Origin: Pseudovirgaria hyperparasitica
Taxonomy: Eukaryota
Direction: 5' to 3' (one strand)
Assembly (NCBI GenBank): GCA_010093815.1
Contig: ML996571.1
Length of the DNA stretch: 64,000 bases
Shown here: positions 1,231-58,372 of the stretch, in pieces
Position numbering within the stretch: the stretch's first letter is position 1
Layout of the letters: every line of letters begins with the position of its first letter
Position numbers and translations under genes: made by a program
The notes under the pieces: generated by a model
Seen by the model: the letters and a program-made list of their open reading frames with translations, nothing else
Told to the model about the DNA's origin: nothing
Databases searched by the model: none

Positions 1231-1254
1231 CTGGGGTAATCAAGGATACCCCAG
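1231..1254. promoter_or_regulatory. Inverted pair of SYGGRG (CreA/Cre1-type) sites
   Basis: CTGGGGTA-N8-TACCCCAG is a perfect 8-bp inverted repeat ~190 bp upstream of the GH1 ATG. Further SYGGRG matches at 1506 and 1525. Confidence 0.35.
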
Positions 1255-30454: not shown

Positions 30455-30946
30455 TATATTTGAAGTTAAACTAAAGTACTTTAGTTTACCCTACTATATA
30501 TTTAAACTAAACTATTAGTTCTAGTAGTAGAATTAAAGTTAACTAAGTTAAACTAAAGTTTAGTAGGTAGTTAAAGAATCTCGTAAACATAGTTAAAATA
30601 TCGTATATTTAAGGCTATATAGTCGATTTTCGTATACCTTAGTATATACCTAGGTAGATTTAAGTACTAAATTATCTAAATTTAATAAGAAACTAACTAG
30701 TATACTTTTACGTAAGCTACTAGTCGTAGATAAGACTATAATACTACTAACTTTTTAAATCTTATAGATAGCTAATTAATAGTAGACTTATCTTACTTTA
30801 TTATAGTATAATTATATCTTCTACCTTACTAAATATATATTTATTATTATAGCTTAAAGCTAGTATAGAGAGTATATTAATCGCGAGTTTATAAAGGTAA
30901 GGAAACTTATCCTTTCTATCTAGCTACTACTAGATTAGACTATCTA
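30455..30946 (-). mobile_element. hAT transposon relic, 3' part (dimerisation domain); continues at 58373-~58932
   Basis: Joined across the A1 insertion, the minus strand reads DSLI***LDRKDKFPYLYKLAINILSILALSYNNKYIFSKVEDII. This is the RIP form of the hAT C-terminal motif (WW...FP.L..LAIDILSIPASS...E..FS). Confidence 0.7.
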
Positions 30947-33900
30947 TGTAAGAATAGGGTTATTGGATAGTAGTATAGTTAGATAGAATAATGGGGTGTA
31001 TTCTATTATAGAACGAATTACTACCGAACCCTTTCGGTAGGAATCTAAGAGTATATATATAAAGGGACGCCGATCTATCTAGTACGTGACTATTTACCGC
31101 CCTTTACGTTACCTTCTAACCCTATTAGCTAAGGTACGTGTAGGTTAGGTTCTATCTAAGGCTAAGTTCTAATAATTATCCCTTCCCTCTAGGAAGCTAC
31201 CCTTAGTAACCTAGATTATTACCTATTTCTATATCCCTATTCTAAGTCTCGTAAGACCTTAGTCGTTCTCTACGCTTCGTCTTAGATACTTACTAATATT
31301 TACCGATCTAAGATTTATATAAGTATTTTTCTAATAAACTAGATTTTATCTATCTTAACTTCTTATATAGGTGAGATTACCTAATTAGGCCTAGCATATC
31401 ACGTAATATAATTAGGTAAGCCCGGGTACTACCTATATTAAAATCTTTTCTTAGAAATATTCCTTTCTTTAAAAAACTTCTTAACTCTTTATAGAGTTTT
31501 TTAGATTATTAGATATATCACCCGATCCTTATAGATATAGATTTATATAGATTTACTATAATTTAGTACGATTTACGTAATTTACTAATTTTTATACCAT
31601 CCTTAGCTAGTAATAATATAATTCGTAATAATCCGTATAAATTAATAATAATCTTAATATAGTTTCCCGAAATCTCGACGCTCTAAAGTAATCGACGCGG
31701 AAATAGGCGCCTTCGAATAATCTCTATCTTATATACGTTACTAATATATTAAAAGCTATTAATCTACCCCGACCTAGGCCGGGCTCTAATAATCTAGCTA
31801 TATATTATTATAGTTATCGCTTTCTATTGTATATAACTTACGGCGGTACTAAATCTATAATATACGGTACTTATATGACTAAGAAGCGTTATTACTTATA
31901 GGTATTTAAGTAAGTTTAAAGAACTTTATATAGATTTACTTATATTAGTATAGATTACTACTAGGCCTCTAGTAACCTCTACTAATAAGGAGTATAGTAC
32001 TACTAATCGTAACGCCTTAGAGAAGGCTTTCTACGAGCTATATACCTAAGGTAAGGGTTACGCCTAGGAGTACGATTCTAATAAGATCCGTAAGGATTTA
32101 TTAGAATCTACTATAGTTATTATTACTGCGATTACTAGATAATATCGTTTTTCTTAAATCGTTATAGATTCTTACTAATATATATTAATCTCTATAATAG
32201 TGCTAAAATCTCTACTACTTCGGACTTCTTTCTATATACTAGTAATATTAGAATTCCTAGAAAAGGTTCTAGTAAAAAGGCTAAGGTTCCTTCCTTACGC
32301 GTGCTAAAGAGCCGTAAATTTAGGGAAGATGGCTCTAATCTAGAAGTTTCTATACTAAAGGTATATGGTTCTATACTAATCGTTAAATCTTTTCGCTAAT
32401 TTATATAATTCTTAGCGTGCCCGCGCCGGTCCGTCCCTCTCTATCCCGGGTTCTACCGCTCCGTAGGTTTCTATAGAGGAGTTTATAGCTATAAGGCACG
32501 CTATATAGAATTTATAGCGTCGGAACGAAAGGCTAGAGACTTATATTATAAAGCTCTATACTATGCTAAATAAGAACTAGTAGAAGGAATTAGATATAAC
32601 TATCGCGGTAATTAGTACTTCTACTCCTACTCCGACTTAATTAGTTTAGATCTATACTAATCGGTACTAATATATCTCTTTTATCTAGCGTTTTTAGTTT
32701 TTTAGTTTTAATTTTAAAGTAATCTTACTTCTTCTAGATAGATTAGTACGAGTTTATATAGATCTATATAGATCTTTATATTTTCTTTTAGCTTTCTTAA
32801 TTTTATCTTTCTTTAATAATAACTTCTTTAATCTCTTTAGTAATCTATACCGATCTATACTAATTGGCATCGATTTTCGATATCTATTTCTCTTAGTGAA
32901 TTATTTTTCTAAGTCTCTTTTTTAGTTAAATTTTTAAAGTTCTAAGTTCGAACTTTCTAAGGAAGTTCCTTAATTCCTTAGAATATTTTAAAGATCTATA
33001 TCTCTTTCACCTTCTTCCTTTTAGGCGGCCATCCTTAGCGCCGAACTATACTAAAAAATGTCGAATCGCCGTACTTTAGTATAATTCTCTACGATTCTAC
33101 GGCTTCCTTTACTAATCGCTACTTATATACTAATATCGCTACTTTACTAATATTTATTATAGGTTCCTAAGTATCTTCGTTAGGATTATATCCTTTCTAA
33201 TAAATTTTATATAGCCACGTGCTATCTTCGGCGCGTTACTAGCTAAGTATCTACTTAACTTCGTAGATATCTATACCTTCTTATATAACTACTTTATATA
33301 GTATCTATTCGGAATAATCCGGTAATAATAAGGTATAAAATGGCTCGAGAAGCGTAATATAGAATATATTATATATCTTTAACGTAGGAGGGAGTTATAA
33401 CTCGTACGCCTGGTTATTAATTATATAAGTAATCTTATATAGACCTATCATCGTATAGTTAAGCTTTTTCTTTAGCCTAATACTACGAATATTCTTACTA
33501 TTTAGTAAAACTTTATCCCTAATATTAAAGCTTATAGGTTTTCTACCCTTATTATAGTGCGATTTACTATAATTCATAGTATCTTATAGTAACTTTATAA
33601 CGCTTCTTTACGTTTAGAATAGTTCTATAGTAATTTCTATTACTTTAACGTTAGGTCGTTCTACTTTAAACTAAGTCCCTAAGAACTATATATTATGGTT
33701 CTAACCGAAGTTTACTTCGAACGAACTCACGTAGGTTAATATATATTAGCTATTATTATACGCGAATTCCGCGATATAGACTAACCTTACCTAGTTATCC
33801 TACTTATAGTTATAATATACGCGTAAATACGCCTTAACTATCTAATTCTACCACTCTATCTATCTATCTATTTATAGATAGAACGTAGTACTAAGTTTCT

Positions 33901-36900
33901 ACTTAATTCCTAGCGTATAGTAGAAATCCTTCTAAAATTTAGACGTTATCTACGGATCTCTATCCGAAACTATGCCGTTCGGTATACTATAGAGCCGGAC
34001 TACGTCACGGAGTAGTATATCTATAAGATCCGGTGCTTAGATTATCTTCCTTATAGGGATGTAGTATAATATCTTTATAAATCTATCTAGAACTATAAGT
34101 AAACTATTATAAATGTGCCTAGAACACTTACTTAGGGGTAGATCTATAATAAAATCCATCGATAATTCCTTCCATGCCTCCTTTAGTATAGGTAATGGCC
34201 TTAATTCACTATATGGCAAGTGTCTATATACTTTCGTATGCTAGTAAATGTTAGGACTTAGCCTTAGGTAGGACCCGATCTACACGTACCTTAGCTAACA
34301 GGGTTAGGAGGTGACGTAAAGGGCGGTGAATAGTCACGTGCTAGATAGATCGGCGTCCCTTTATATATATACTCTCGGATTCCTACCAAAAGGGTTCGGT
34401 AGTAATTCGTTCTATAATAGAATATACCCTATTATTCTATCTAACTATACTACTATCTAATAACCCTATTCTTATATTCGAATTACTCCCTATATAGTAC
34501 TATAGTTAAGATAGTCTAACTAGAACCGAGAAGGTCGACACGATCTACTATAGGGATAAGTAATACTATATTAAATAATAGGGATCCTCTATAATCGGTA
34601 TTAATCCCGGCCGTTTCTAACTAAGAAGTAGAAATATTAGACCGAATCACGGAGCTTTTAGACGAAGAAATGGTAGATACGCCGAGTAACTTCTAATAAT
34701 ATAAAGCCGGATAACGAGTCGTGGCGGAGCCACGTAAGGTATTATAATAAACTATCGCTGAACTTTAGGAATACGTCGCGAATTAGGCTCGAGAGATTTA
34801 AACCCTTAAAGAATAGGTAGAACGCGCGAAACTCCTTATAAAGAGACGAGAACTTAAGGAGTCTCTTAAAGAACTACGCCGAACGATAGTAGGTGGACGA
34901 CTTCCTATACTAATTTAGGCGGAATTAGTTTACCTACCATTAGAGTTACGATAATCTACCGTATACCCGGCCGCTTCGTTACCGATTTACCCTATTCCTT
35001 CCCTAGGTATACTAAAATCTAAAGACCTAACTATATTTATAGGGAAGAACTAAAAGGAGTAGAAAGACTAGAAGAGAGACTACGAAAAGTACTTCCTTAA
35101 TAACCCTCTACTCTTTTCTACTAAAGTATAACGCATTTCGTTCGGAGAACGATACCTAGACTTATAATCCCGCGATTAATAGAATAGATAGAAGGAAGTG
35201 CAGCTACTATCTACGATAACCTAGGAATATTTAGCTATATTTATACTAAATACCCTCGGAACGGATAGAGAACGTGAAAGAAAGGCACTATCTAAGTTAA
35301 GAAGCGTGGTATAACGACCGAACTAGACACCTACTTAACTACTATAATACCTCTAAAACCTATAGGATAATATCCCTACGCTATAGGAAAATATTCGCAT
35401 ATTCTAGTTTCGCGAAGTACTACTTCCGTTAATTCGCGAAAGACTAGGAATAGTATTATTAAGTTTTAACTATCTATACGAATTAGAGGAGAAAGCTAAT
35501 AAATACTACCGTATCCTTAAGGAACGCGGCTCTCTAGGTAAAACCGACGAACCCTATATAGGTTAGAAACGAGGTCGATTAAATACGTTCGATTAAGAGT
35601 AACCTTACTATAATTAGCGCTAGAAGAGTGTAAATCGGGGTAGAAACGCGTTAAGAGGACACTAAAATAATTAAGGCGGTGCTTCTTAACACGGAAAAGG
35701 ATAAGGCACGGGCTTAAATATAACGCCTATTATAAAATAGTAGGATTATAGCGCACTTCGTTACTATAAGTATAGAGAAATAGGATATATTTCGCCTAAC
35801 TATAAGAATCCGAAAAAAGAATAGACTAGTACACGAGACCTAACCGCGTCCTTAGCTAAATTATATATACTTAGGAGGAGCTATAGCGCCTTCCGGCGAG
35901 TAAAGACCTAATATTACTAAAAGTATCGTTATCTATAGTAAATAGTAATAAAACTATATAGGCCCTCGTGGATACTAGTATAGAAGATAACTATATTTCG
36001 TCGATTCTCGTAAAGGAGTATAGATTATCGTATAATCTCGGTAAAGTTAGCCGAACTATCGTAGTTAATAGATATGAAGTTAGAACTTTAGGTAAAGCTA
36101 TAACGAATTACGAAGTTCATGACTTAAAGATAATAAAATAGTAGATGTCTAATAAATTTATCGTGGCTAATATTAGCTAATAGAATATGATTCTAGGGAT
36201 GCCTTAGCTTAGACGCCTAAACCCTATCCTCGATTTTTAGAAGGAGATATTAATATTCTAACGATACCATAGTAAATTATACTAGTAAGTCGTAACTATT
36301 AGTAAGGAGGCATAGAACCTCGCCGTGCGGACCCGATTATCGCTAATCTATCTTATATTCTTATTAATTATTAATAAAGACGAGGACGATAGTAATAATC
36401 AGGGCGAAGACACGCTATCTAACGTATATTCGTAGTATACGGATATGTTTTCGGTAGAAGATACGTTACTTCTCCCTAATCACGGGCTATATAAGCTAAA
36501 GATCGAGCTCGAAGAGGGAGTAGACGTCCCTTATAGTCTACTTTACCTACTTTCGAGACTAGAACTTAAAGTTCTTTATAAATATATTAAAGAATACCTC
36601 GAAAGGGGCTAGATACGTCGTAGTACGTTATCGGCCGGTATACCTATTCTCTTCGTAAAGAAGAAAGATAGAAGTTTACGTCTATGCGTTAACTATTAGG
36701 CACTAAATATAGTGACTAAGAAGAATCGTTATCTATTACTACTAGTTAGTAAATCTTTAGACTAATTAATGAAGGTAAAGTACTTTACGAAGCTAGATTT
36801 ATAAGATATATATTACCGGCTTTAAATTCGTTACGGAGATAAGTGGAAAACCGCATTTCGGACTAGATATAGTTATTTTAAGTATACTATTATGCTATTC

Positions 36901-39299
36901 GGGCTAATAAATACGCTAGGAGCGTTTTAAGGATATATTAATACTATACTCGTAGGATTACTTAACGTGATTTACGTAGTTTATCTCGATAATATACTAA
37001 TTTACTCCGATAGTATATAGGATTATAAAGAACACGTGAAATCGGTGCTAAATCGTCTAAGGTAGTATAAACTCTACGCAAAATTATCTAAATACGAGTT
37101 TTACTAATAAGAAGTTGGGTTTCTTGGCTTTATTATAATATATGGCGGCCTAAAAATAGAGCCGGAGCGTATAAAGACTATTATAGAATAGCCAGAACCT
37201 ACTACTATACGTTAAATTAGAATATTTATAGGTTTCGTGAACTATTATTATAAATTCATTATAGGCTTCTTACGAATTACGGCGCCGCTTAATAAACTTA
37301 TAGAGAATGGCGGTAAAATCCCTATAGGTGGGCGAGTATAGCGTAAAGCTAAGTTGGTCGAGATATAGTTAACGCCGGAAGCGCGAGATACGTTCCGATT
37401 GTTAAAGAATTACTTTATAACTACGCTAATTCTTAGGTATTTTAATTCTAAGAAGTATATTTAGGTCGAAACTAACGCGTTAGGATTTATAATTACTAGA
37501 ATTATTAGTTAACCGTATAAAGATACGAAAGATAAGGTATAATAGTACCCGGTCGCTTTCTTTTCCTATAAAATAGCGGATATAGAGACGTGTTATAATA
37601 TACACGACTAGGAACTACTTATAATCGTCGAGAGTTTTAAGTAATAGCGATATTATTTAGAAGGCTCTATATATTAGATTAAATTATTATCGGATCACGT
37701 AAATCTACGTTACTTTATATCGACTAAGGTCCTTAATCGCCGATAAGTACGTTAGGCTAAGTAGATATTAATATTTAACTTTAAAATCTTATATAAAGCT
37801 AGAAGAGAGAATAAAGCTAATCCTCTATCGCGGTGTAAAGATTATAAGAAATCGTTATAGAATAACGTAGATAGTCGGTATAAGTTAGACTATACTATAC
37901 TTTAGATACTATAAGACTAGTTATCTAATAGAATACTAGAAGCTAGGACACTTTCGGCGATTCTCCGCGGGAATTAGAGCGGGTATTAAGTAATCTAAAT
38001 AAACATCTAAGAAACTAAGAAAACCCTTAAAGACTTAATTAAATCTACCTAGAATTCCGATATATTAGTAAAGAAAGTTATAAGTATAAAAGGAAGCGCT
38101 ATAGATCCGCTATGGTTATTAAGGTAGGAACGATGATTAGACGCGATCTACTTCTAAGGCCGACTCTATATGCCGGAAGGCGGCTTACGAATTAATATTT
38201 TAAGGGAATAGTATAATTACGCGTTAGTAGGGCACTTCGGTATTATAAGGACGGTCGATTTAATCCGAAGGACATACGACTAGCCGGGTCTTTATAAATA
38301 TATAAAAGACTACGTAAAAACGTATAACGTTTGCCAGCATATGAAAGTACATAGACACTTACCATATAGTAAATTAAGGCCATTACCTATGCTAAAGAAG
38401 GCATGGAAGGAATTATCGATAGATTTCATTATAGATCTGCCCCTAAGTAAGTATTCTAGGTATATTTATAATAGTTTACTTATAGTTCTAGATAGATTTA
38501 TAAAGATATTATACTATATCCCTATAAGGAAGACGATCTAAGCACTAGATCTTATAGATATACTACTCCGTGACGTAGTCCGGCTCTATAGTATACCGAA
38601 CGGCATAGTTTCGGATAGAGGTCCGTAGATAACGTCTAAATTTTAGAAGGATTTCTACTATACGCTAGGAATTAAGCGGAAACTTAGTACTACGTTCCAC
38701 CTATAAATAGATAGATAGATAGAGCGGTAGAATTAGATAGTCGAGGCGTATTTACGCGCATATTATAACTATAAGTAGGATAACTAGGTAAGGTTAGTCT
38801 ATATCGCGGAATTCGCGTATAATAATAGCCGATATACGTTAACCCACGTAAGTCTATTTAAAGTAAACTTTAGTCGGAACTATAATATATAGTTCTTAGG
38901 GACTTAGTTTAAAGTAGAACGACCTAATGTTAAAGTAATAGAAATTACTATAGAACTATTCTAAACGTAAAGAAGCGTTATAAAGTTACTATAAGATACT
39001 ACGAATTATAGTAAATCGTACTATAATAAGGGTAGAAAACCCATAATCTTTAATGTTAGGGATAAAGTTTTACTAAATAGTAAGAATATTCGTAGTATTA
39101 GGCTAAAGAAGAAGCTTAACTATGTTAAGGATAGAGATGTCAAGTCTTGGTCAAGTATTGAATTGATTACTAGCTACTTCATGGAATCTACGGCTATGTA
39201 TATGGGACTGCTAGTCCGTGGTTCTTGCCGTTATCCATCTCCTTGTTACTTTCCGTGACAGCTACCCCTAACAGCTCGAAACGATAAATGTAAAAGTCC

Positions 39300-42200
39300 T
39301 TACTCTGGTAGGCTTGCTTTAGTTAGATGCTCGTGCAGATACTATACTATGTTACTCCCTAGGTGTCGGTAGAAGTATTAATAGTATTATTATAACATAG
39401 CTCTTTGTCTCTCCGGTTCTTGCGCGAGGATAGCTTCCATTACCTTTAGATTTATAGTAACTTCCTAAAGCCTATCGTGAACCTCGAGGAAAGCTTCGAA
39501 TTAGTTATTAGGGTATTTGAATATATAATTTAGTACTATTCTTGTTACTCTTATTTCTTTTATATTTATTTAATCCATTCGTAGCGTCGGTATAGCTATA
39601 GGGATCTAAGACCATTCGTACATATCGTCGTCTTTTCTCGGCCAGTTCGAGTAAGTGGATTCAGCGGGAGTGGGAACTATGGGTATCGGAATAATAACGG
39701 TTTCTATATTTATAGCCGTAGCGGCACTTACGATAACGTCATTCTCTACGTCGGCTACGGCACTTGCGATAACGTTAATCTTTACGTCGGCTACGGCACT
39801 AGTCTCTACTATTGGCATGGTTTTAGTAGTAGTATTATCAATGGCGGCGGTGACTTCCTTAGTTTCAATGATTAGGACGGTTTTAGTTACGGCGGCTTCT
39901 CCCATTTAGGAGTCTTCTATATCATGAAATTCGTTTACCGACTCCGAGTCGTCGGTATTCGCGAGCTTTACGAATTACTATATTTGTTTCTTGAACTTAT
40001 CTAAGACGGCTTCTTCGTGCACGACTTCCATTAGGTTGTCGTTTATATTAGTATCTAATTCTCTAACTTCTAGTAGCTCAATTTCTAAGCTTGATACCTT
40101 GTCGTCTAAGAGCTCCTAGGCGTTTCGTTCTAGAAGTTCTTTAAACTAATATTCTAGCGTAGGAATTCTAGAAACCGGTATTTCCATCTGAATATTATCG
40201 AGTTTAGGATAGTAATTATAAGTACTAGCGGCCGCTACTTCGTCGAAGAGCATTTTAAAAGGTATTCCGTTAGAAGCTATACATAGTTTATCTTCTTTTA
40301 TAGCGAGTAGGTGTTCGAAGCTATCTTAGATATATTACTAGTATCTTCTAATAACTTCGTCGATATCTTGCGCGCCTACTTCTATAGCGCGCTCCATAGT
40401 TTTCGTCACGCTATTAGGATGTTATGGGTTTATAATTATCTCTATGAATCTTCGTATCCAGCTGGTAATTCTTAGTGTTTACCTAATTAATTCTTTCCTG
40501 GATGAAGCATCTACTATGGGCGTAGCAGTTACCGCGGGCGTAGCTGTTACTATAGGCGTAGCTGTTTCTACTATCGCAGCTATCTTCTACGTAGCGATCT
40601 TTTATGCTTCTACTATGAACCTTTTTAGAGCCTCCCTTATAATATCTTTTATCTAAGCTTCTATCTCTTTCTCGTGGGCTAAGATAAGCGTGTTCATTTC
40701 CGCCTCTTATTAACTAATAGCGTTTGCGGTTAACGCGGCGGGAATTAAGGCAGGTAAGGTCGCGGGAATTAAGGTAGATCGTAGCTCCGTTAGCTCTATT
40801 AGGGTAGGCGGAAGTTCTAACGACGTAGGAGCTACCTTGGATGCTATTGTTTTGGCGGTGATTGACTTTACCTTCTTTACTATTTTAGCTTTCTTTGCGG
40901 CGGTAGCTAGTATAGGTTTTATAATAGGGAGTGGGACCTTGATTACCTCTATTACCTTCGTAACTAGAGCCTATGTTTCTTCCGGTATCCTTAATTTAAT
41001 GACGCCTTCGGTTAGGTTTATCGGGACGTTTAAGGTAGACACTCCGGCCTTTAGTCCCTTAGCGATCTCTCTTACTAAAATAATTGGCTATACCTCGTTA
41101 GTATTCGTGAATCCTTCGATCACGAAAAAGTTATCTATTTTATTAAAACTAGGTAGCGAGCTTATAGTAATAGTTTACGTAGAGATAGTTTACGTAGAGG
41201 TTTCGGGTAGGGTTAAAGTGTATCTACTAAGTAGGTGTCGTGGTAGGAGTTTATTAATTTTCCTACCCTATGTAATTCGATCTTCGCGGGAACCGTCTCG
41301 AATGATTATTAGCATGGTTACCCAGTCGTTCGTGACACCGTAATTCAAAGGATCTGTGAACCATGGCATTTTTTTATAGGCCGTGGCGAATTTCCGTGCG
41401 AGGTCTTTAAGAGAGACTACTAAGATTAGCCATGTACGCGCTATGTCTTCTATATATAGCGCGTAGACTTCTTTAAGTAGCTTTTCTTCTGCTCCTCGAC
41501 GCTAGTCTACTATTACGCTCTCTATTAGGCCCTATTTTCGAACCAAGTCTTAGAGTATAACCTTATTCAATGGTATCTGTGAGTGCACTTCACGGACGTT
41601 TTTTATAATTCTAGCCTTGTCTTCTAGGGAACTCAGACGGTGGATTAACTAGAACTGGTATCCGGACGATTATAGTGCTGTTATATGGTTGCCGTTAAGT
41701 CCTTTAAGGCGTTATAAGACGTACTAGGATCTTGCGTGTCTGTGGAGGATGTATCATTAGTATTCATGCGCCACGAGCGTCGCTTCTTAATTATATTACA
41801 ATTACTATATAATTAAGTCTAGAGGTCCTATTACCCATTCCTAGGCGATGTCTCTTTACTACTAAGCTACGACGGTAACCTAAACTAATCCGTCCCTCCT
41901 TCGCCATGCGGCGTAGCGCCGAATATTCTTACTATTTAAACCTTATAGCTAAGATACTGGTATATTCCACGCGTGACTATAGTGGCTCCGGATTTCCTCT
42001 ATGGTATCCGTTACGAAGTATCGTGCCGGAATCTACGTATATTCTACTTAAGCTATTTCCTTTGTGGAGTATCTATTATCTAGTTTTAAGAGCTGCGCGA
42101 TAATACTACTCTTAGACGATTGCTCTGCCTCGAATCTCGTGCCTTTTAGGAGTGTGACGGTAAAGTTCCATTCCTCGTCCGCGGATATTATACTCTCCTC

Positions 42201-43514
42201 GAGTTCTTCATTAGAAACCGTGGCTGGAATCTTTATAAAGAATTCTTTTTACTTTAGAATATACCTGATTTCGTCTATAGACACTAGAGCGAGTAAACCT
42301 AGGCGGAGGCGGTGTGGATTTACTCCTGGGTCCGAAAATTCTAACTAATATTACTATGTAACGACTGGTTCCTCCTCTTCTGTCATGGGCGGCTCATATT
42401 TATAGTTGGAGTTAGAGATTATACTACCGTCGAGAATGTTATAACGTATGGTACCGTGCCTCGCACTATACTTATCATACGCCTTTTGTTCGCCCTTCCT
42501 TGTGATCTTAAGCTTATTTTTCGTCTTGATTATAACATGATGTGGCACGGCGACATTTGGTAGTATGGTTAGACCTTTTAGATCCTACGTGACTCCCTTA
42601 TCTTCCTTATATAGGAGGTTAATCTATCGAAGCTTGTGTAATGCTATTTATAATACCTCTGTGTTCGAATGATGAACCCCGTACTTTAGGAGAGAAGGGT
42701 CCCACCAGGTAGGATTCTTAATATCGGTGTTAGTAAGAATCGGTCGCTCCTTATAGAGCACGTACTAACCGATAGTAAGATAGTAGAACTTTCTATTAAC
42801 CGTAACCGGCTTTCCTTTATTATCGTAGTATAAGCATCTATCTTTATAGGGAGGGTCTAGCTTTCGCGGTAGAATATAGAAATTATCGCCTTCCTTCGTT
42901 ATGAAAGGCGATACTTCCTTTAAAGACTAAGTCTTTGATACTTAAAATGACGCTATGAATCTATTTATGATATCCTTCTAGTAAAAGATATTATCGAGTT
43001 TCCTATGGAATATCAATGCCACGTAAATCTCGAGTTTATACTTGTTAGAAAGGTAGATACCGTGAGTTGGCATCGCAAATCGGAGGCCCTTAACTATAAT
43101 TCCTAAGGTAGGATAATTATAGACTGGTTTTCGTTCGTTATATCTTCTATTAAAGCTTCCTTTTTATTCCATGTCGATTCTAATACGCGCTTTATAGAAT
43201 AGGAAGGTTTCTAATTATATAGTTCTGATGATACCGCTTGTTATTCCTTTTACGCGAGGGTGCTTTCCATACACCGCTCGAGTTATGATAGGAACTGTGT
43301 TATATTTTAAGGCGGTAGGCTTCTTAATTAGTGACTTCTTACTCTTTATAGCCTTTCCTTCGTTAATTTCGCTCGCTAAATAACCTCCGTTACCTTTATT
43401 CCCTTTTAGCTTTCGCTTATGACCTCTCTTAGTAACTGTTTTTAGCGGGGTTAAGGCGTTTTCCTTATCCGAGGTGACTTTAGCTTTATTATCTTTACTC
43501 CGTGTTATCTTTAT
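39300..43514 (-). pseudogene. Extra ~1,400-codon ORF (ORF3) of element B, function unknown, broken by RIP-type stops
   Basis: One reading frame (codon starts = 2 mod 3) checked at 43514, 43172, 42548, 41369, 40697, 39905 and 39302. Interruptions seen are TAA/TAG only. Confidence 0.75.
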
Positions 43515-44489
43515 ATACTATAGATATAAGAGTAAGGAGGAATTAATAACTGTTTAAGATTATAGATAAAACTTATTAAGCTAGAGTCTCTACGAGGTTA
43601 AGGTGGAGGATAGAAAGATAAGTTACGCGTTAAGTTAAGGATGAGTAAGTAGAAGGTAAATCGAGCTCGGCGGTAAGAGTGTTCGCGAGCGTGACGTTAC
43701 TATTACTACCTTCCTTCGACGGTAGGGTAAATTCTCCTTTTACTAAGATTATATCTACTAGTGCTGGGTTTACGTCGTTAAGAGGACTAATAGCGGTAAG
43801 TATAGCGATAATATTATCGACTACTAAATAGTATCGTGTTCGTTATCGTCGTTATATATAGTAATATATTTCTACTAACGGATACTAAACGGTAGTCTAT
43901 AGCGTGTGCTTAATGGCTGATCGAGATATACGTGGTGAGGAGGGCATTCTCGGATCCTAGTGTTGATCTATATAGATATAGTGCTATGAGATTACTCCTT
44001 TATCGTCCTCACGGAATTCGTGTTATAATGCGTTAAGAATTCGTTTAAGCTTATGGGTATGCGGTAATAATTAATGTCGCTGTGTTTTTATTCACGGATT
44101 CTATTCCTCTTAGACCGTTATACTATTTCGCTTACTATTATTATAAATGTTTAGGGGATATGATTATAGGAATAGTTATATATATAGGCGCAGTTTCGGT
44201 GAAGTGTGTTTTTCAGGTTAGGGATGTATCTGATATTGGATGCAATGCTTTAATACTATTATACGTTTGACATTGGATATAATTCTTTTATTAATATAAT
44301 TCTTTTATTACACGGTAGTACTTCTAAAGGGTAAACGCGAAAAGGAACGTATATATGCAATTAATGATAATTCGGAATTGTATCCATCTTAGGTAGGAAC
44401 CTTTCGGTTTCTAACCTAAGCTAGGATTTTAACGCTGTGTAAGAAACGCCTCTTAGTACTTAAGGCTATGAATTTCTTTTATCTAGGTC

Positions 44490-47400
44490 CTCTTTTATAG
44501 TTCCTTATCTCTGTTTTTAAGGTTGGGTATATTATGTCGAATTCCTCTCGAAGTTCGCGGGTATCTCTAAGGTCTTCTTCATTATACCATTGGTTATGAA
44601 TTAGACCCTAGCCCTTCTATTTAACTAGGTACTATTTCTTCTTTGTATTCTAATTCTAACGTCGGTCGAGAAACCTTTCAATTTCATAAGACGGATATTT
44701 ATCTAGATTATCTTCGGCGAAAACGCTAGGTGGTTCGTTAGTACCATGGTTGCGTCCGAATAGATCCGTGCCGGGCGGGTATGGTACTAGCTGGCTAACT
44801 AATACCACTAGGTGAATTTTCACGCTCTCCGGAAGGTCGAGTTCGTACACGTTATTCCCGATACGTCGTAAAATTTTAAACGGACCGGTTCTCTAAATAT
44901 CGAACTTCCTATTTACGTGCCCGTGTACGCGGTAACCGTGGTATAATTATAGATACACTTCGGCTCCGGGTTTTAGACGAAGAGGCTTATACTTCTTATT
45001 ATATCGGTACTTTATTATAACCGCTGCGAAGCTAGTAGCTTCGGCGGCTATTTCTCTATTCTTTAAACGGAGCGATTTATAATCTTTAGAAGGTAATTCA
45101 TGTAGTGCGTCCGCGCTATCTTTAACTTTAAAACCATATAATTACTTATTTAGAGACATGCTAGTGGTTTCATTTATAGCGTTATTCATGAAGCCTTATA
45201 GGAATGGTAAGTAGGCATCCTAATCTTCGTCGGGATTCTCGGTAACCACGAAACGAATTCCGATCTCTACGGATTGGTTTGTTCTCTCTGCCTAGCTATC
45301 TATTTATAGGCGATATACGGCGGATATTAGGAATTTAACTCCTAGTATGCTAAAGACCTTTTACTAGAAGGCTGAAAGCCATCTCGCATCCCTATCTAAA
45401 ATGATTTCAGCCGGAATTCCCCAATCGTGTTTAACGAGGTTTAGTAGAATTAGACTAGCCCATTCTTTAGCGCCCTAGTTAGTACGTCCTAGAACGAGAA
45501 GCACTCTTTTCGTAGCTTTATAGGTAATAGGCGCTAGAGCGTCGTAACCCGTTACTGTTTTAGGTAGGGCAGTAATAAGGTCGAGGCATATAGTTCTAAA
45601 TGGTACGTGCTAAGTCGCGATAGGCGTGAAACTCCCGTATGGCTATTACCGAGAGGTCCTCGCCTCGTTACATTACTTATAATATTTAATATAGGCCTTG
45701 ACTTCTTTTGAAAGATGGCGTACGTAGAAAGATGCGGACACTCTCTCATAGAGTCTATTCTCTCCTTAATGGAAACTATAATCGTAAAGTACGTTAAAGA
45801 TCTCGCTAAGAAGGGCATGGGGAATATATAGCCTTTCCCGATCATTGCCTCTATCGATGTTATAGATTATCTTATCTTTTATAAAGAATTTTAGTCTATT
45901 CAGGGGTTGTGATTTCCCTTTTAGTAGTAATTTACCTTTAGAGAAGTTGACGTATATTGGTACGTTCTCGTCTCCATGTCGGAGAGCATCTTCCTTAATT
46001 AGTACTTCGCGTACTTTGTTCCATGCCTCGTCGTCTTTATAGGCTTTTCGTAGGCGATCCTTGAATTTATCTACTATTTTAATTAAGACTACGTGATAGA
46101 CGTAGGTGAGTTTAGTAATCGTCCCTTCATCGCTACCGATCGTAAAAGCCTATGCGATCTTATCTAGCATATTGCCTTCTGTGGCTGGCGCCGTACTTAT
46201 AAGCCTGCTAAGAGCGTCTAGCACGATATGGTTTCTACTAGGGCGGTATCGGATATTAAGCTTATATTATAAGAGATATTAAGCTGCTCGGATAAGACGG
46301 ATATTCTTATAGTCGGCGGCTATGCTGGAGAGCTTCGTCTAATATGTAATAGCCGTTATTACGGTATGGTCCGTGAATATAATAAACTATGCTAATAATT
46401 CGACGAAGTGTCGAAGTTTAGTTACTAACCAAACTAGACCAGCCATTTTAAGTTCTATGGGCTAATAGTTTCGTTCAGTTACCGTGATGGCTTTACTAAG
46501 AAATAATATTGGTTGTATTACTTCCTTTAGAAATAATTCTACCTAGCGTAGCCACGATATTCTTAGGGGGTCGAGTAGATTAAGATTAGTCTCGTCGGGA
46601 TCGATAGGATCGTTAACCGGAACTAACGATATTACTAGATCTGGGTCCCCGCGAACGTGGTATATGAAGACTCTAAAGCCATACTCTTTTAAAGCGTCGA
46701 CGTCTAGGAACGTACGTCTTACCGGCTCATGGTAATAATAGAAGATCGGGTCATCCTATAGCCCTTGTACGGCTTAAAATGATTTGATAAGTACTTTAGT
46801 CTATGGAACTAGCCTTTTCGAGGCCTATACTTTTTGCTGAGTCTTTTTACGAGGGGCATAGCGGAAGAGCTTAGTGCTAGCTTTTAGTAGCGGTGAGACT
46901 AACTATATATAGTATAGTAACTGTCCTCGTAGATATCCCGCCATTCCTAGGTATTGTTTAAGTGCTATAGTATCTTTTAGGAACTGTATTTCTTTTAGAG
47001 CTGTAATTCTTTCTACCTTTGAAGATAGTCCGAAGGCGTTAACTCTTTTTCCAAGGATTATAGTACTTGGATACCCGACGAACGTCTTGGTTACGGCGAG
47101 AGACATATTGAAGTTTAATAGTGTGCTCCATAGTTACCGTAAATAATAAATATGCTCTTCGAATGTCTTAGAGAAAACTACTATATTATCTATGTAGGCT
47201 TTTGCCTATGGGAACTCTCGTAGGAGATTATCGAGTTCCCGTTGCACGTGCTAGACTAAATTAACGTAGCCCATGGTAAGAACTTTCAGGTATTCTTAAC
47301 CCCTATAGGTGTTTACCGTGAATTGCTCACGATCTTCTTCTCGTACTAACCATTAGTAGAATATACTTATAGCGTCCATTGTTATGATATAGTGGTAATC

Positions 47401-50400
47401 TCGGCTAGCCTAGAGCATGTCATCCATTCTTATTAACGGGTAGGAATCTTTGACGGTAATTGTATTAAGGCCTCTAATGTTAATCACCACGCGTGGTTTC
47501 TATATCAGCCTATTTATCTTTAGATTATAGACCTCTCTCTAGACGATAAAAACTGGGGAGCTAAATTGGGTAGGCTTTTTACTCTAACCCATTTTATTGT
47601 TGTCATGAAGCCCGTCAAAGGTTTTATTAATTACTTTACGGTCCTAAGGGCCGACGTTATATACTCGAGTGTATAACTTCTTTAGTTCTCGCTAGTCCTC
47701 CATAAGGATAAGCTTTGCTTCCCTAGAGTTTACGACGGATTTTTTATCTCGCCATAACTCTATAAACTCTTTAATAAGTTCTTTATATTTTGTAGCCTTC
47801 TCTTCCCTACTATAGAGTATTATTCCGTTTAGGAGACGTGTCTTAAGCTTAGGGTTAATGTTCGCGGCTTCTAAGGGAGGAAGGGTAGCGAGGTCTACGT
47901 TAGTATCGGAGATCTAGTAGCATTCTACGATGTCTAGTTCGCGGATTTTACCGAGCACCGTATTCCTCGGAATTACGAGTGTCTCGTTTCCGTCGTTCTT
48001 AATCACGATTTCTCCACTACTAGAGTCGATGACTACCGTATAAATTGTAGCTTATCGCTTCCCAGTAGCGGAGAGGTGCTCTTTCGTGGGTTTAAAAAGC
48101 ATATCGCGATTATTTAGGAGGTTACGTGTGTCCACGAGAACCACGCCTCTTGAATTAGGCTTGATGGATACTAAGTGCTGCGCTCTTACTATGACATTTA
48201 ACTGCTTCTTATGTCTTAGGCGGATACTTATAGGAGCCACCGCATTTTGGCCGTGTGGAAAGGTAATCATGCGGTTTTGAACTTTGATGTCTATTTCTTC
48301 TAGACTAATAGTATCCATGCCCATCAGTAGTTTTGGTACTAGGTTTTCGATAATGCGTGCTTCGCATTTAATAGTAACCGCGACGTCGTTTCCTTCTACG
48401 GTGGTAGGTACCGTGAGTGTCATTTTAACGGACTCGTCGCTATTATAAACCTTATTACCGATATCTATGACTACTGTTAGGTGTATGAGTTTCGTGACAT
48501 GCTTTTTATAATCTAGTAGGACTATGGCTAGCTAGTTTCTGTCCACGAGACTCAGCTTTACTCCGGTATCCACGATTATTTACTTAGGCTCTATGGTCCC
48601 GTTTAATGTTATGTTTATTATAATGTAGTTCTAATAACGAAAGCGATGGCCTTTCGTTCCTATCCTTTTTGCGGTACTCTTAATGACTCGTGGTACTGGT
48701 AGGGGCGACGGAAACTCGTCCACCATATATACGTGATCCACTGGTTTCTTCGGATGCTTTTCCGTAATATACTAATATAGCTTATTATTAGAAGGATACT
48801 TTTATCTATAGACGCGACAGTTCCTCGCTATAGTCCTTTTGCTCTTCTACGGTTTCTCGAGCGATAGTGCCGGTAGAGTCTCGACTTCCTTAGTTCTCAC
48901 GAAGAAAACTCTAGCTGACTTCTTATAAGGTTCCTCGTCCGACTAGCTTTCTTTAGCTTACTCTTAAGCTTATCCGCCCTAATCTTCGTCCGGCGAGTCT
49001 TCTTTATTTTGCGATCCTTCTTAATTAAGAAACTCTACTAGGACTATATTATAATAGGCGCGTTGCGGCTTTATATAAGGTTGCCTCTCGACTTATATAG
49101 AAGTCGTCGTGGTCTTTTCGAAACTCTTTAGCTAATACTTGCCATTCCCTTTATATAGGCGATGGTCTACTTCATATAGACGACGGTCTCTGCCTTAATA
49201 CTAGTTTTGACCGCGGTCTTTACTAGACCTTTACTCATTTATCTAAGAAGATACGACTTAGATTGTTTTCTCGCTTTCTTTTATTATCTAAAACTTGTTA
49301 GGGCGGTCCTCTCGTCCGCCGCTACTACTATATCGTATCCCGCGGTTCCCTTAAAAGTAGTTATTTCCGACTTCTTTTTCTTTACGAGGATAGCGGTTCG
49401 ACGGATACTAGCCTTATAACGCTTTACTAGAATAGGAATAGTCGAACTTACTCTACTTATAGAGTTCACGCTAGGTCTATGATTTCTACTCGAGCTATTT
49501 ATAAAAGGTATCTAGATTAGTATTAGATCCGGGTTCCTCTATGCTTACCCTAAATCTTAGGTCGAGCTTATTCTAGGCCTGTGCTATAATAAGTACTTTA
49601 GATTTCAAATTTACTTCTTTATAAGCCCTAAGTACTTTTATAATATAGTTAGTCGTGCTCTAGCCTCTATATAAGTTCTCGGGGCTATATAATATGCCTT
49701 AGAGTCTCTTTAAGGCGGCACTTAGAGGTGTAGAGAATCTCTTTTCGAGTTTCTTAACCCAGCGCTTAAGTCCATCTCCGCTAGTAAGACTTGACTTTAT
49801 AGCGTCGCTTAATTAAGAGCTATACCAAATTTGCGCCGTGCCTCTAAGATACTTATAGAGATTATAACGAATGATTTTCGCAGGGCATGTCTACTAGTAG
49901 TTCCTTATTACGTCGATGAACGGCTGAACGGATCTATAATAGACCTTTCTATTCTTATTATAAATATCTTCCGTTCTTAAAGGATCTATGCTCGGATCGA
50001 AGAATCTAATGTCCTCCGTCCTAAACTTCGTGTCTCTTAGATTTAAGCTATCGTTATCTTTATAGTCTCTAGTTTCCGTAGTTCGCCGGCGACAATGCGG
50101 GGGTATATATAATCTACAACGGTGGCCACGAGCTCTATCATCGTCTCCCTATAGATTATCATCCGAGCCTTCGCTTAGATCGTTATCGTTTCTTAAAACT
50201 CTTACTATAGGCTAAGCTTATCTATGGTAGTCGTTTCTAGACGGACGGTCTCTAGAAAGTTCTTCTTTATCTCTTCCCTAAGGCCTTTCCTAAGAGGGCG
50301 CGACTTGGCTGGCTCTACTTTATTCTACTAGAGGATTTGCCCTCTTACGATTATTAAGTACCGCTAAAACTATTATCGTAATTTACGCGATCATTTCTAC

Positions 50401-50950
50401 GCTTAGCATATTAGGCTAGGCTTGCTAAGCCATAACGGGAACTGGAATTGGAGCCGGAATTGGAGGCTCGAGGCTTTAAGGCGTTCCGACTTGCTCTCCG
50501 CTTCTCTCTACGCCTTAGCTCGAGCTTCCTCTCTAGTAAGGATTCTCTAGTACTATAATCGCCTCGTGAGGATTAGAGATTATCGTCTCGCGAGAATTGG
50601 AGTTCTCTAGTCTTACGGGTTCGTCGTGAAACTCGAAGTCTTATGGTCTTACGGGCCTTTTCTTTAGCGCGGCTAGAACTTTAATTAATGACGGAGGGGA
50701 CGAGGAAGGCAAATTTACTTCTCTTGGCTATACGAAGTTTCTAAAGTTACTGAAATATTTAGATTAACGGAAATTTGCCGCTAGCCTTTCAACCTTTATA
50801 GCTTCGGTAGTCGCTAGACGTATTCCGTGATCTTTATTCATGAGATAGTTCTAGTTAGGAGGATATCTATCTTCCTAAGGCTGTTTGCCCCTAGACCGTA
50901 AACGATTTCGATTTCTTAAGACTTCTAGATATACGTGGGCAATACCTCGA
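44490..50950 (-). pseudogene. RIP-inactivated gag-pol of element B
   Basis: C2H2-like relic CRVYR*KYPSNNKLY*YITEKH at ~48755-48820, protease IIVDTG at ~48570, RT AYIDNIVVFS at ~47190, RNase H LDVDA at ~46700. Also integrase WGIPAEIILDRD at ~45410, TGPFKILRRIG at ~44880 and chromodomain YEIERFLDRR...QWYNEEDL at ~44690-44570. The 5' limit is approximate. Confidence 0.88.
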
Positions 50951-53900
50951 AGTAAGATAAGGGTATAGGGGTTTAATTCATGTAGTGGGCTATCTTTAAA
51001 GTAATGAATAAGTTGATAAGCTGTTTTAATAACTTACTCTAATAGCTTAGGAATCGGTTCCTTCTATAATACTAGTAAGGGAGCTAGTATATCTTATGTG
51101 TTCCCGAGCGTACCGAGAATGTCGGCCGCGGGAGGCGCGGACGTAAGCTTCTCTAGTATACTTAGGTAATCGGGAATGTTTAGTGGGAACCTACTCTAAC
51201 CTTGGTAGCTCGCGGAAACCGAGGCTTCGCGTACTAATCGTCTCGTCTAATTAGTACTAACCTATTCCTATGAAGTAGGGTTCGACTGGCACTAAGTGTG
51301 ACCGGTCGTGGTATAGTGTCGTGTTCCTTACTTAACGGGAACTAGGGAATCGTAGGGAGCTCGATCCTTTTAATGCACGACTCGTTTAGGAACACTAGTG
51401 CTTATGCTACCTTTTAGTAATCCTCTAGAACGAGTCTCATGGAATTTAGTATGGTTAGAATAAGGTGAGGCCTTTGATGCGGATACTTATTCCTGTTTTC
51501 CTCTAGTGGCAAATCCTTTATTTACCGTTCCCTTGGCTCCTTCCTTAGGACTTTCGGTTATAATTTTATACTCTTACGAGTCTTAATGATAGTAATAGTA
51601 ACGAACGTTACCTGGTGCCTAGTATTCTTTTATCCTTACCGATTGTCTCTCCGTACTTATAAACTTCTTTTACTAAATTTTACGGAAGCGTCTTTCGTTC
51701 GCTAAGTCGGGATATTAACGTCTTTTGATTCGGCTTCGGAGAACTAGTACGTCAGGGCGTTAGTATCTTATATTCGACTAGTACTATCTTTCTTTCGAAA
51801 ATGATTAGCTGGTAGTATGCTTTTAGCTACTAAGATGTTAAGGATAGAGATGTTAAGTCTTGGTCAAGTATTAAATTGATTACTAGCTACTTCATGGAAT
51901 CTACGGCTATGTATATAGGACTGCTAGTCCGTGGTTCTTGCCGTTATCCATCTCCTTGTCACTTTCCGTGACAAACTATACGATAATAGGTCTATATAAG
52001 ATTACTCGTGTAATTAATAACTAGGCGTACGAGTTGTAACTCCCTTCTACATTAAAGATACATAATATGTTCCATATTACGCTTCTCGAGCCATTTCATG
52101 CCTTATTATTACCGGATCGTTCCGAATAGATACTATATAAAGTAGTTACGTAAGAAGGTATAGATATCTATAAAGTTAAGTAGATACTTAGCTAGTAATG
52201 CGCCGAAGATGGTACGTGGCTATATAAAATTCGTTAGAAAGGATATAATCCTAATAAAGATACTTGGGAACCTATAATAAACATTAGTAAAGTAGCGATG
52301 TTAGTATATAAGTAGCGATTAGCAAAGGAAGCCGCGGAATCGTAGAGAATTATACTAAAGTACGGTAATTCGACGTTTTTTAGTATAGTTCGGCGCCGAG
52401 GACGGCCGCCTAAAAGGAAGAAGGTGAAAGAGATATAGATCTTTAAAACATTCTAAGGAATTAAGGAACTTCCTTAGAAAGTTTGAACTTAGAACTTTAA
52501 AAATTTAACTAAAAAAGAGACTTAGAAAAATAATTCACTAAGAGAAATAGACATCGAAAATCGGTGCTAATCGGTATAGATCGGTATAGATTACTAAAGA
52601 GATTAAAGAAGTTATTATTAAAGAAAGATAAAATTAAGAAAGCTAAAAGAAAATATAAAGATCTATATAGATCTATATAAACTCGTACTAATATATCTAG
52701 AAGAAGTAAGATCGCTTTAAAATTAAAACCGAAAAACTAAAAACGCTAGATAAAAGAGATATATTAGTACCGATTAGTATAGATCTAAACTAATTAAGTC
52801 GGAGTAGGAGTAGAAGTACTAATTACCGTAATAGTTATATCTAATTCCTTCTACTAGTTCTTATTTAGTATAGTATAGAGCTTTATAATATAAGTCTCTA
52901 GCCTTTTATTCCGACGCTATAAATTCTATATAGCGCGCCTTATAGCTATAAACTCCTCTATAGAAACCTATAGAGTAGTAGGACCCGGGATAGAGAGGGA
53001 CGGACCGGCGCGGGCACGCTAAGAATTATATAAATTAGCGAAAAGATTTAACGATCGGTATAGAACTATATACCTTTAGTATAGAAACTTCTAGATTAGA
53101 GCTATCTTCTCTAAATTTACGGCTCTTTAGCACGTGTAAGGAAGGAACCTTAGCCTTTTTACTAGAACCTTTTCTAGGAATTCTAATATTGCCGGTATAT
53201 AGAAAGAAGTCCAAAGTGGTAGAGATTTTAGTACTATTATAGAGATTAATATATATTAGTAAGAATCTATAACGATTTAAGAAAAACGATATTACCTAGT
53301 AATCGCGGTAATAATAGCTATAGTAGATTCCGATAAATTCTTATAGATCTTATTAGAATCGTACTCCTAGGCGTAACCCTTATCTTAGATATATAGCTCG
53401 TAGAAAGCCTTCTCTAAGGCGTTACGATCGGTAGTACTACGCTCCTTATTAGTAGGGGTTACTAGAGGCCTAGTAGTAATCTATACTAATATAAGTAAAT
53501 CTACGTAAAGTTCTTTGAACTTACTTAAATACCTATAAGTAATAACGCTTCTTAGTTATATAAGTGCTATATATTATAGATTTAGTACCGCTATAAGTAA
53601 TATATAACGGAAAGCGATAACTATAATAATATATAGCTAGATTATTAGAGCCCGGCCTAGGTTAGGGTAGATTAATGGCTTTTAATATGTCGGTAACGTA
53701 TACGAGATAGGGATTATTTAAAGGCGCCTATTTCCGCGCTGATTACTTTAGAGCGTCGAGATTTTAGGAAACTATATTAAGATTATTATTAATTTATACG
53801 GATTATTACGAATTATATTATTACTAGCTAAGGACGGTACGAAAATTAGTAAATTACGTAAATCGTACTAAATTATAGTAAATCTATATAAATCTATATC

Positions 53901-54816
53901 TATAAGGATCGGGTAATATACCTAATAATCTAAAAAACTCTATAAAGAGTTAAGAAGTTTTTTAAAGAAAGGAATATTTCTAAGAAAAGATTTTAATATA
54001 GGTAGTACCTAGGCTTACCTAATTATATTACGTGATACGCTAGGCCTAATTAGGTAATCTCACCTATATAAGAAGTTAAGATAGATAAAATTTAGTTTAT
54101 TAGGAAAACGCTTATATAAATCTTAGATCAGTGAATATCGGTAAGTATCTAAGACGAAGCGTAGAGAATGACTAAGGTCTTACGAGACTTAGGATAGAGA
54201 TATAGAGATAGGTAACGATCTAGGTTACTAAGGGTAGCTTCCTAGAGGGAAGGGATAATTATTAGAACTTAGCCTTAGATAGAACCTAACCTATACGTAC
54301 CTTAGCTAATAGGGTTAGAAGGTAACGTGAAGGGCGGTAAATAGTCACGTGCTAGATAGATCGGCGTCCCTTTATATATATACTCTTAGATTCCTACTAA
54401 AAGGGTTCGGTAGTAATTCGTTCTATAATAGAATACACCCTATTATTCTATCTAACTATACTACTATCTAATAACCCTATTCTTATAGTAAACGTTATAT
54501 ATTTTTACGTAGTCTTTTATATATTTATAAAGACCCGGCTAGTCGTATGTCCTTCGGATTAAATTAACTATCCTTATAACGCCGAAGTACCCTACTAACG
54601 CGTAATTATACTATTCCCTTAAAATATTAATTCGTAAGCCGTCTTCTAGTACGTAGAGTCGGCCTTAGAAGTAGATCGCGTCCGATTATCGTTTCTACCT
54701 TAATAACTATAGCGGATCTATAGCGCTTCCTTTTATACTTATAACTTTCTTTACTAATATATTAGAATTCTAGGTAGATTTAATTAAGTCTTTAAGGGTT
54801 TTCTTAGTTTCTTAGA

Positions 54817-54871
54817 NNNNNNNNNNNNNNNNNNNNNNNNNNNNNNNNNNNNNNNNNNNNNNNNNNNNNNN
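54817..54871. other. Assembly gap (55 N) inside A1
   Basis: Run of N in the sequence. Confidence 1.
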
Positions 54872-57800: not shown

Positions 57801-58372
57801 CTACCTATTCTTTAAGGGTTTAAATCTCTTAAGTCTAATTTACGACGTATTCCTAAAGTTTAGCGATAGTTTATTATAATACCTTACGTGGCTCCGCCAT
57901 AACTCGTTATCCGGCTTTATATTATTAGAAGTTACTTAGTGTATCTACTATTTCTTCGTCTAAAAGCTCCGTGATTTAGTCTAATATTTCTACTTCTTAG
58001 TTAGAAACGGCCGGGATTAATACCGATTATAGAGAATCCCTATTATTTAATATAGTATTACTTATCCCTATAGTAGATCGTGTCGATCTTCTCGGTTCTA
58101 GTTAGACTATCTTAACTATAGTACTATATAGGGAGTAATTTAAATATAAGAATAGGGTTATTAGATAGTAGTATAGTTAGATAGAATAATAGGGTATATT
58201 CTATTATAGAACGAATTACTACCGAACTCTTTTAGTAGGAATCCGAGAGTATATATATAAAGGGACGCTAATCTATCTAGCACGTAACTGTTTACCGCCC
58301 TTTACGTTATCTCCTAACCCTATTAGCTAAGGTACGTATAGGTTGGGTCCTACCTAAGGCTAAGTCCTAACA

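Follow-up and report, generated by a model that had tools for sequence, protein, structure and literature searches.

A candidate third gene between pol and the 3′ LTR of a long Ty3/Gypsy chromovirus in Pseudovirgaria hyperparasitica

Fungal long terminal repeat (LTR) retrotransposons are usually treated as carrying gag and pol only. Env or env-like third open reading frames (ORFs) lie between pol and the 3′ LTR in the errantiviruses, the retroviruses, the plant Athila/Tat elements and the Sireviruses, and plant Tat, Ogre and Sirevirus elements carry extra ORFs. Here we analyze element B, a Ty3/Gypsy chromovirus on the minus strand at positions 39123-51973 (12,851 bp) of a stretch of 64,000 nt (the window) from Pseudovirgaria hyperparasitica (contig ML996571.1, assembly GCA_010093815.1). 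Between its pol and its 3′ LTR there is a third long reading frame that we call ORF3. Descriptions of comparable fungal elements are few. The available part of PMC8365987 presents Boty/BcGypsy1 of Botrytis cinerea as a fungal Gypsy element with an extra gene, brtn, which Zhao et al. 2011, cited there, call antisense in their title; in the literature searched this was the only fungal LTR element with an extra gene. Elsewhere, in bdelloid rotifers and in orchids, extra ORFs have been captured by LTR retrotransposons, as described in the accessible parts of PMC5408684 and PMC9289625. RLG_Rolly of Leptosphaeria maculans is a long element, given as 11,875 bp with an LTR of 235 bp in Table 4 of PMC3105345. 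The available text of ‘LTR Retrotransposons in Fungi’ (PMC3248453) mentions extra domains for complex nested elements only. In the openly accessible papers searched, Repbase and Dfam not being included, no fungal chromovirus was found described with a sense ORF of ~1,400 codons.

On balance we favour the reading that ORF3 is a genuine, once-coding third gene of a 12.85-kb Ty3/Gypsy chromovirus family. It would lie in sense in the ‘env position’, would have moved together with element B, and would have arisen or been acquired in the lineage of element B alone. Repeat-induced point mutation (RIP) would have killed it in this copy along with the rest of the element.

Coding evidence for ORF3

RIP leaves a particular mark on a reading frame. 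CAA, CAG and TGG codons are converted into TAA or TAG, whereas TGA is seldom made because of the context preference of the process. RIP is indicated where TpA/ApT exceeds ~0.89 and (CpA+TpG)/(ApC+GpT) falls below ~1.03. The AT-rich part of the window (positions 30001-64000, GC 0.23–0.43, against 0.39–0.59 in 1-30000) has values of 1.4–1.7 and 0.12–0.54, respectively, and thus bears the signature of RIP; those of the GC-balanced block are 0.77 and 1.18. The indices of ORF3 (1.48 and 0.51) and pol (1.43 and 0.54) are alike, and both are those of a RIP-mutated repeat.

The ORF3 frame runs from 43517 to 39261, and 64 of its 1,419 codons are stops (33 TAA, 30 TAG and 1 TGA), compared with 163 and 117 in the remaining two sense frames. 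Thus the ~4.2-kb sense frame proposed in the original prediction is present, and the accompanying statement that it is interrupted by TAA and TAG only holds for 63 of the 64 stops, the exception being the TGA at 41754-41756. The stop density of 4.5% is similar to the 3.5% in the coding frame of pol (17 TAA, 34 TAG and no TGA in 1,459 codons), and the non-coding frames of the two regions contain 7–25 TGA each. Since only 10 Gln and 12 Trp codons are left in ORF3 beside the 64 stops, about three quarters of its Gln/Trp-type codons have been hit. In 1000 dinucleotide shuffles there was none with 64 or fewer stops in any of the six frames (minimum 68, mean 88.6, standard deviation 5.5).

When codon frequencies are modelled on those of pol (48899-44520), the ORF3 sense frame scores 214 nats more over its 4,257 nt than the next-best of the six frames, while the margin in 500 shuffles had a mean of 18 and a maximum of 86 nats. 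This corresponds to 50 nats/kb, compared with 12–15 for the spacer that precedes ORF3, the 5′ region of the element and the neighbouring transposable element (TE) DNA. When the region is divided into overlapping windows of 600 nt the ORF3 frame wins in 12 of 14, with a margin of at least 13 nats to the runner-up and of at least 25 to the third sense frame; across 42373-41474 the frame in the phase of pol ties instead. ORF3 contains three tandem repeats, and their periods (36, 18 and 15 nt) are all multiples of three. The minus-strand excess of A over T that characterizes gag-pol persists unchanged through ORF3, and both the codon usage and the A-richness of ORF3 match those of pol. The stop spectrum, the codon model and the in-frame repeat periods show that ORF3 was formerly a coding ORF in the sense orientation.

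Could the frame be an artefact of the A-rich composition of RIPed DNA, or could the real gene lie on the opposite strand, like brtn, as the plus-strand frame 40192-41976 and its neighbours? A plus-strand frame over ORF3 likewise has 64 stops, and an antisense extra gene has been reported from Boty-like elements (Zhao et al. 2011, as cited in PMC8365987). The segment 40192-41976 comprises 594 codons with 21 TAA/TAG, and includes a stop-free run of 209 codons at 40714-41343. Yet 9 of the 64 plus-strand stops are TGA, compared with 1 in ORF3, and the phase of the open plus-strand frame relative to ORF3 is that of an open antisense frame relative to pol. Because pol shows a like antisense frame, and because of the nine TGA, we consider the plus-strand frame to be a mirror by-product of the sense frame. 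In the codon model it falls 372 nats below the ORF3 sense frame, a preference that is partly one of strand composition as the model was trained on the same A-rich strand, and ORF3 does not qualify as a brtn-like antisense accessory gene. A purely compositional origin is excluded by the shuffles. Taken together these observations make it very improbable that ORF3 is not a gene.

The upstream end of the frame reads TAT-ATA-AAG-ATA-ACA-CGG, in agreement with the start ATA-AAG-ATA-ACA-CGG given earlier; the ATA codons, at 43514 and 43508, may be RIPed ATG codons, and there is no ATG at the start. The natural stop probably lay at about 39400-39300. Within the frame there is a stop-dense patch (41960-41630) that divides it into ~520 and 790 codons, and here the frame in the phase of pol scores slightly better. 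The patch may have encoded a linker rich in Gln and Trp before RIP, or it may mark a local frameshift, the boundary of two ORFs or conceivably an intron. Together with the sharp contrast in composition between a basic N-terminal and an acidic C-terminal half, it can be taken to indicate a composite, made of at least two ORFs or of the remnant of an older, unrelated element nested in an ancestor of the family, with the single frame partly a coincidence. This seems improbable to us. The same frame is used in both halves, the runs of stops are easily explained as Gln and Trp codons hit by RIP, there is no Pfam domain of any transposon class in the six frames, and neither internal repeats nor termini were found.

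Element B as one insertion in a multi-copy family

The anatomy of element B is that of an LTR retrotransposon, with two direct LTRs, TG...CA ends and a short target-site duplication (TSD; Table 1). The direct repeats at 39122-39260 and 51835-51973 are 97% identical, but their 139th matching base is a chance flanking T, so that direct reading gives an LTR of 138 bp, as originally predicted. The gag-pol frame encodes in order gag, protease, reverse transcriptase, RNase H, integrase (zinc-binding and core), SH3 and chromodomain, with the gag core at ~50020-49450, the protease DTG at ~48570 and the chromodomain at ~44690-44540. Pfam matches in this frame are RVT_1 (residues 1465-1607), RT_RNaseH (1792-1874), Integrase_H2C2 (2023-2079) and SH3_Tf2-1 (2312-2371). 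The closest proteins found are two intact Logan proteins, P0003, which is 36–39% identical over ~1,380 residues from protease to chromodomain (E 3.5e-249), and P0004 (33–34% identity). The region of the protease DTG aligns with P0003, and the order protease, reverse transcriptase, RNase H and integrase is that of Metaviridae pol. The Chromo match (residues 2402-2451, E 7.9e-4) has a score of 19.7 bits, below the gathering score of 25.1 bits, but the segment aligns with the chromodomain region of both P0003 and P0004 (PF00385 in each case), which places element B among the chromoviruses.

Table 1. Coordinates of element B and of the features of ORF3 in the window
Feature	Position	Strand	Basis or remark
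TSD TAGTT, 3′ side	39118..39122	-	direct reading
3′ LTR, 138 bp, TGTCAC...TTAACA	39123..39260	-	97% identity to 5′ LTR
ORF3, 1,419 codons, RIP-degraded	39261..43517	-	stop counts, shuffles, codon model
36-nt x 2.2 tandem repeat, in frame; 12-residue SAVADV... unit x2	39722..39800	-	
Acidic C-terminal region of ORF3, tentatively helical	39873..40370	-	net ~-17 over residues 1051-1200
18-nt x 3.3 tandem repeat, in frame; TATP(I/A)V x3	40512..40570	-	
Stop-dense patch in ORF3	41630..41960	-	~20% stop codons, TAG-TAG-TAA runs, single TGA 41754-41756
Basic N-terminal 100 residues of ORF3, net +21, with KRGHKRKLK	43218..43517	-	charge count
Spacer between pol and ORF3	43518..44300	-	no preferred frame, stops dense in all frames; end of pol estimated from P0003 alignment
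5′ leader and gag-pol frame	44301..51835	-	TGA-free across 51891-44095
5′ LTR, 138 bp	51836..51973	-	repeat comparison and direct reading
TSD TAGTT, 5′ side	51974..51978	-	direct reading

By alignment with P0003 pol ends at ~44300-44450, leaving a spacer of ~0.8-1 kb before ORF3. This agrees with the chromodomain followed by a ~1-kb gap of the original prediction, and no frame is preferred there overall. Within the spacer a stretch in the phase of pol at 43880-43580 on the minus strand (~100 codons, with 0-4 stops per 60 codons) is the best local frame by 7–13 nats, which may reflect a small ORF or chance. At the other end of the element ~430 TGA-free codons (51835-50600) lie upstream of the position at which the gag-pol ORF begins in the relative L003 (see below). 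Here the preference of the codon model for the gag-pol frame is weak (7–15 nats per 600 nt) and Pfam gives no match; the segment is a long 5′ leader or else extends gag at its N-terminus. Before the 3′ LTR there is only a short purine-rich sequence, AGGGGTAG. No clear tRNA-complementary primer-binding site was visible by eye in the RIPed sequence, no tRNA comparison having been made, and an Rfam scan of element B gave no matches.

Element B is inserted into a plus-strand Gypsy element, the integrase of which occupies 38137-39258 and whose chromodomain-like continuation is at 51972-52486. In two DNA sequencing runs of the source organism contigs join position 39117 directly to 51974, skipping 12,856 nt, which is element B plus one TSD. 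Such a joint comes from other copies of the host TE, in which the site is empty. As one TSD flanks the whole 12.85 kb and the joint at the empty site is exact, ORF3 was inserted together with the rest of the element as one unit. A separate insertion of ORF3 with its own TSD or termini is thus not seen.

Is ORF3 a peculiarity of this one copy? There is no second copy of element B elsewhere within the window. In run X1, however, 2,954 contigs of at least 80% identity could be mapped to 39000-52100. The summed contig depth, which is a sum over short contigs rather than a formal copy number, has a mean of ~3,890 over ORF3 (nine bins, ~2,900-4,580) and ~4,000 over gag-pol (17 bins, ~3,040-5,240), while single long contigs have depths of ~270-350. 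One contig of 60 kb terminates in the LTR of another copy with the 3′ end of its ORF3. As the contig depth over ORF3 is as high as that over gag-pol, ORF3 belongs to a multi-copy family. Differences between the copies comprise 1,347 transition and 89 transversion places (~15:1), and the copies in the source organism are all RIP-diverged. Two runs of another study with the same species label, X3 and X4, contain next to none of the stretch, and we do not read this as absence.

The surroundings of element B are themselves a nest of TEs. There is a sharp isochore boundary at ~30000, between non-RIPed, GC-balanced DNA and an AT-rich block of RIPed repeats. Four copies of an LTR of 231-232 bp are found in this block (30946-31176, 34245-34476, 54256-54487 and 58144-58374), 90–97% identical to each other, with the outer pair in inverse orientation to the inner pair. 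The arrangement suggests a three-level nest in which element B lies in the plus-strand Gypsy (34245-54487), and this in turn in a minus-strand copy of the same family (30946-58374). An assembly gap of 55 N (54817-54871) also falls within the nest. In the source runs the flanks of element B, which belong to the host Gypsy (39000-39436 and 51673-52100), have a summed contig depth 8–20 times as high as element B itself, so that the family of the host is far the more abundant of the two.

The predicted product and its relatives

The predicted product of ORF3 falls into regions of contrasting composition. Residues 1-350 are basic (net charge +43), residues 750-1000 are rich in Ala, Thr, Pro, Ile and Lys and include TATPxV three times, and residues 1050-1300 are acidic (net -27) and include the twofold SAVADV unit. 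There are only 2 Cys in the 1,419 codons, and no internal repeats at the protein level beyond the short tandem units. The original prediction had listed a basic N-terminus with KRGHKRKLK, three TATP units, two SAVADV units and acidic stretches, all of which are in the translation; a proposed C-x2-H-x12-(Y/H)-x5-H segment is not, since its first ligand is Met (ATG at 43073, peptide FAMPTHGIY). An ancestral Cys/His motif is possible, since codons for Cys and His become Tyr codons under RIP.

No transmembrane segment or signal peptide was detected in ORF3, using a hydropathy test on residues altered by RIP. The maximum of the 19-residue Kyte-Doolittle average is 1.73, the hydrophobicity peaks fall in low-complexity stretches of Ile, Ala and Pro, and the N-terminus is basic rather than hydrophobic. 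The product is therefore not of the env type, as had been proposed. AlphaFold2 without an alignment gave a mean per-residue confidence (pLDDT) of 29.9 for residues 70-546 and 43.4 for 985-1215. The sole modelled feature is a long helix at about residues 1136-1178 (pLDDT 59-71, low confidence overall), so that the C-terminal part is tentatively helical within the modelled residues 985-1215. A basic N-terminus and an acidic helical tail might fit an adaptor on nucleic acid or chromatin, a weak inference. The putative nuclear, nucleic-acid-binding, anti-silencing or targeting role that has been suggested derives from one feature, the basic N-terminus, and is not supported.

Searches for homologues of ORF3 were negative throughout. 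Pfam gave no match for ORF3 or for the six frames of 39261-44519, and the best match in a sequence search of the PDB had E 0.87. With residues 1-1200 as the query phmmer returned nothing at E <= 0.001 among 1.84 billion representative proteins, and word-indexed searches of proteins of 30-779 and 780-2,484 residues revealed no homologue. A metagenome scan gave 58 pattern matches, none of which was confirmed. In blastp against gag-pol and 12 pol homologues the best E was 0.2. As a positive control the equally RIPed pol finds P0003 at E 3.5e-249, and a homologue of ORF3 of moderate identity should therefore have shown; a fast-evolving one might escape.

How widely is ORF3 distributed among the relatives of element B? 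A metagenome scan by pol alignment gave 26 loci, of which 2 are complete and 24 partial or degenerate. The first complete relative, L001 (1-7277), was assembled as a circle that repeats every 7,154 nt, its ends overlapping exactly over 123 nt; the ORF of pol occupies 385-4542, and that of gag runs from 5621 across the junction. The second, L003 (1-7784), was likewise assembled as a circle (period 7,645 nt, exact terminal overlap of 139 nt), and contains one uninterrupted gag-pol ORF of 2,080 aa (1065-7307). Both are apparently intact chromoviruses and may be active relatives in the clade of element B. These units leave no room for ORF3, which is consequently absent from both complete relatives; they encode nothing further than gag and pol, as was expected of typical elements. 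None of the 24 partial or degenerate loci matches ORF3 by tblastn, the best E over all 26 being 1.6. Since both complete relatives lack it, ORF3 is lineage-specific, either gained in the line of element B or lost elsewhere.

These data bear on the main rival explanation, that ORF3 is a passenger: a cellular or foreign gene, perhaps with the spacer as its promoter or 5′ untranslated region, that was captured once by a forebear of the family and has been carried along with no role in retrotransposition. A non-coding interval of ~0.8-1 kb ahead of ORF3 and the lack of the frame in two of two complete relatives are what might be expected of a passenger, and the capture of ORFs by LTR retrotransposons has precedent in the parts of PMC5408684 and PMC9289625 available. 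Yet no cellular homologue was found among the 1.84 billion representatives (residues 1-1200) or in the word searches (30-2,484 aa), even though the RIPed pol was found, which makes the recent capture of a conserved host gene, one of the options originally raised, unlikely, though an orphan gene may have been captured. Furthermore, the codon usage and A-richness of ORF3 match those of pol, and all parts of ORF3 are as repeated as gag-pol, indicating that it persisted through the amplification of the family. We therefore consider the passenger explanation unlikely, with the composite and non-gene explanations less likely still.

Interpretation and comparison with known systems

Several observations weigh against a third gene belonging to the element. 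No intact copy of ORF3 has been seen, and the first in-frame ATG is codon 116 (~43172). The sense preference of the codon model is inflated in part by strand composition, and the contig depths are sums over short contigs. Given the patch at 41960-41630, where another frame is locally slightly better, ORF3 may be two ORFs or hold frameshifts. It has no homologue, domain or confident fold to back any function, and the long spacer and its absence from relatives suit a passenger sequence equally well. A once-coding third gene of the family nevertheless remains our preferred interpretation.

If ORF3 was such a gene, its product would be a large non-membrane protein, with a basic N-terminal part of ~350 residues that is possibly directed to nucleic acid or the nucleus, followed by a low-complexity central stretch of Ala, Thr, Pro and Ile and, at the C-terminal end, by an acidic, helical part. 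The non-coding spacer of 0.8-1 kb, with the change of frame from pol, leads us to infer separate expression, which might be from a subgenomic message of its own, either spliced or internally initiated. We reject a fusion of pol and ORF3 by frameshifting, as the spacer is stop-dense in all frames. The protein might then serve the cycle of the element rather than cell entry, for example in the handling of particles or cDNA or in chromatin targeting. That all three hold together, a non-membrane accessory protein, its own subgenomic message and a service to the cycle, is a tentative proposal that is much more likely to fail than to hold. It is doubtful that ORF3 founded a new class of accessory gene in fungal retrotransposons, that is, a large non-membrane sense protein with a basic N-terminal and an acidic helical C-terminal module, evolved or acquired by this lineage, needed for propagation and made from a subgenomic RNA starting in the spacer; in that case it might, for example, deliver the pre-integration complex to the nucleus or chromatin, or blunt silencing by the host.

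A family that was amplified while carrying a 4.2-kb orphan gene would indicate that there is room for large accessory cargo in the chromoviruses of fungi. The sequence of ORF3 provides a probe for live relatives in fungi less prone to RIP, where function would be testable, and for TE annotation there is value in a 12.85-kb family with LTRs of 138 bp that LTR finders may split. Element B is a fossil in this genome, and offers a lead rather than proof of a new system. LTR retrotransposons with an additional ORF are already known, and ORF3 is preserved here as a RIP fossil only.

How does element B compare with the systems that have been described? ORF3 has the same position as the env-like ORFs, from which it differs in having no signal peptide, transmembrane segment or Pfam match; moreover, env-like ORFs overlap pol, while ORF3 is set apart from it by the long spacer. 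Like Boty/BcGypsy1, compared here by its description in the available part of the source, element B has an extra gene beyond gag-pol, but brtn is antisense and ORF3 sense. The captured ORFs of the bdelloid and orchid elements are, in the parts of those papers available, lineage-specific additions with recognizable domains, whereas ORF3 has none. RLG_Rolly, again compared by the available description, is like element B an unusually long, RIP-affected fungal Ty3/Gypsy element of AT-rich isochores, with an LTR of 235 bp in place of 138 bp. The nearest systems found are the fungal chromoviruses represented by P0003, P0004, L001 and L003, with which element B has in common LTRs with TG...CA ends, a 5-bp TSD and the order of domains. 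L001 and L003, however, are gag-pol only and measure 7.15-7.65 kb. At 12.85 kb element B goes beyond these relatives by the 4.26-kb ORF3, the spacer of ~0.8-1 kb that precedes it and a longer 5′ region.

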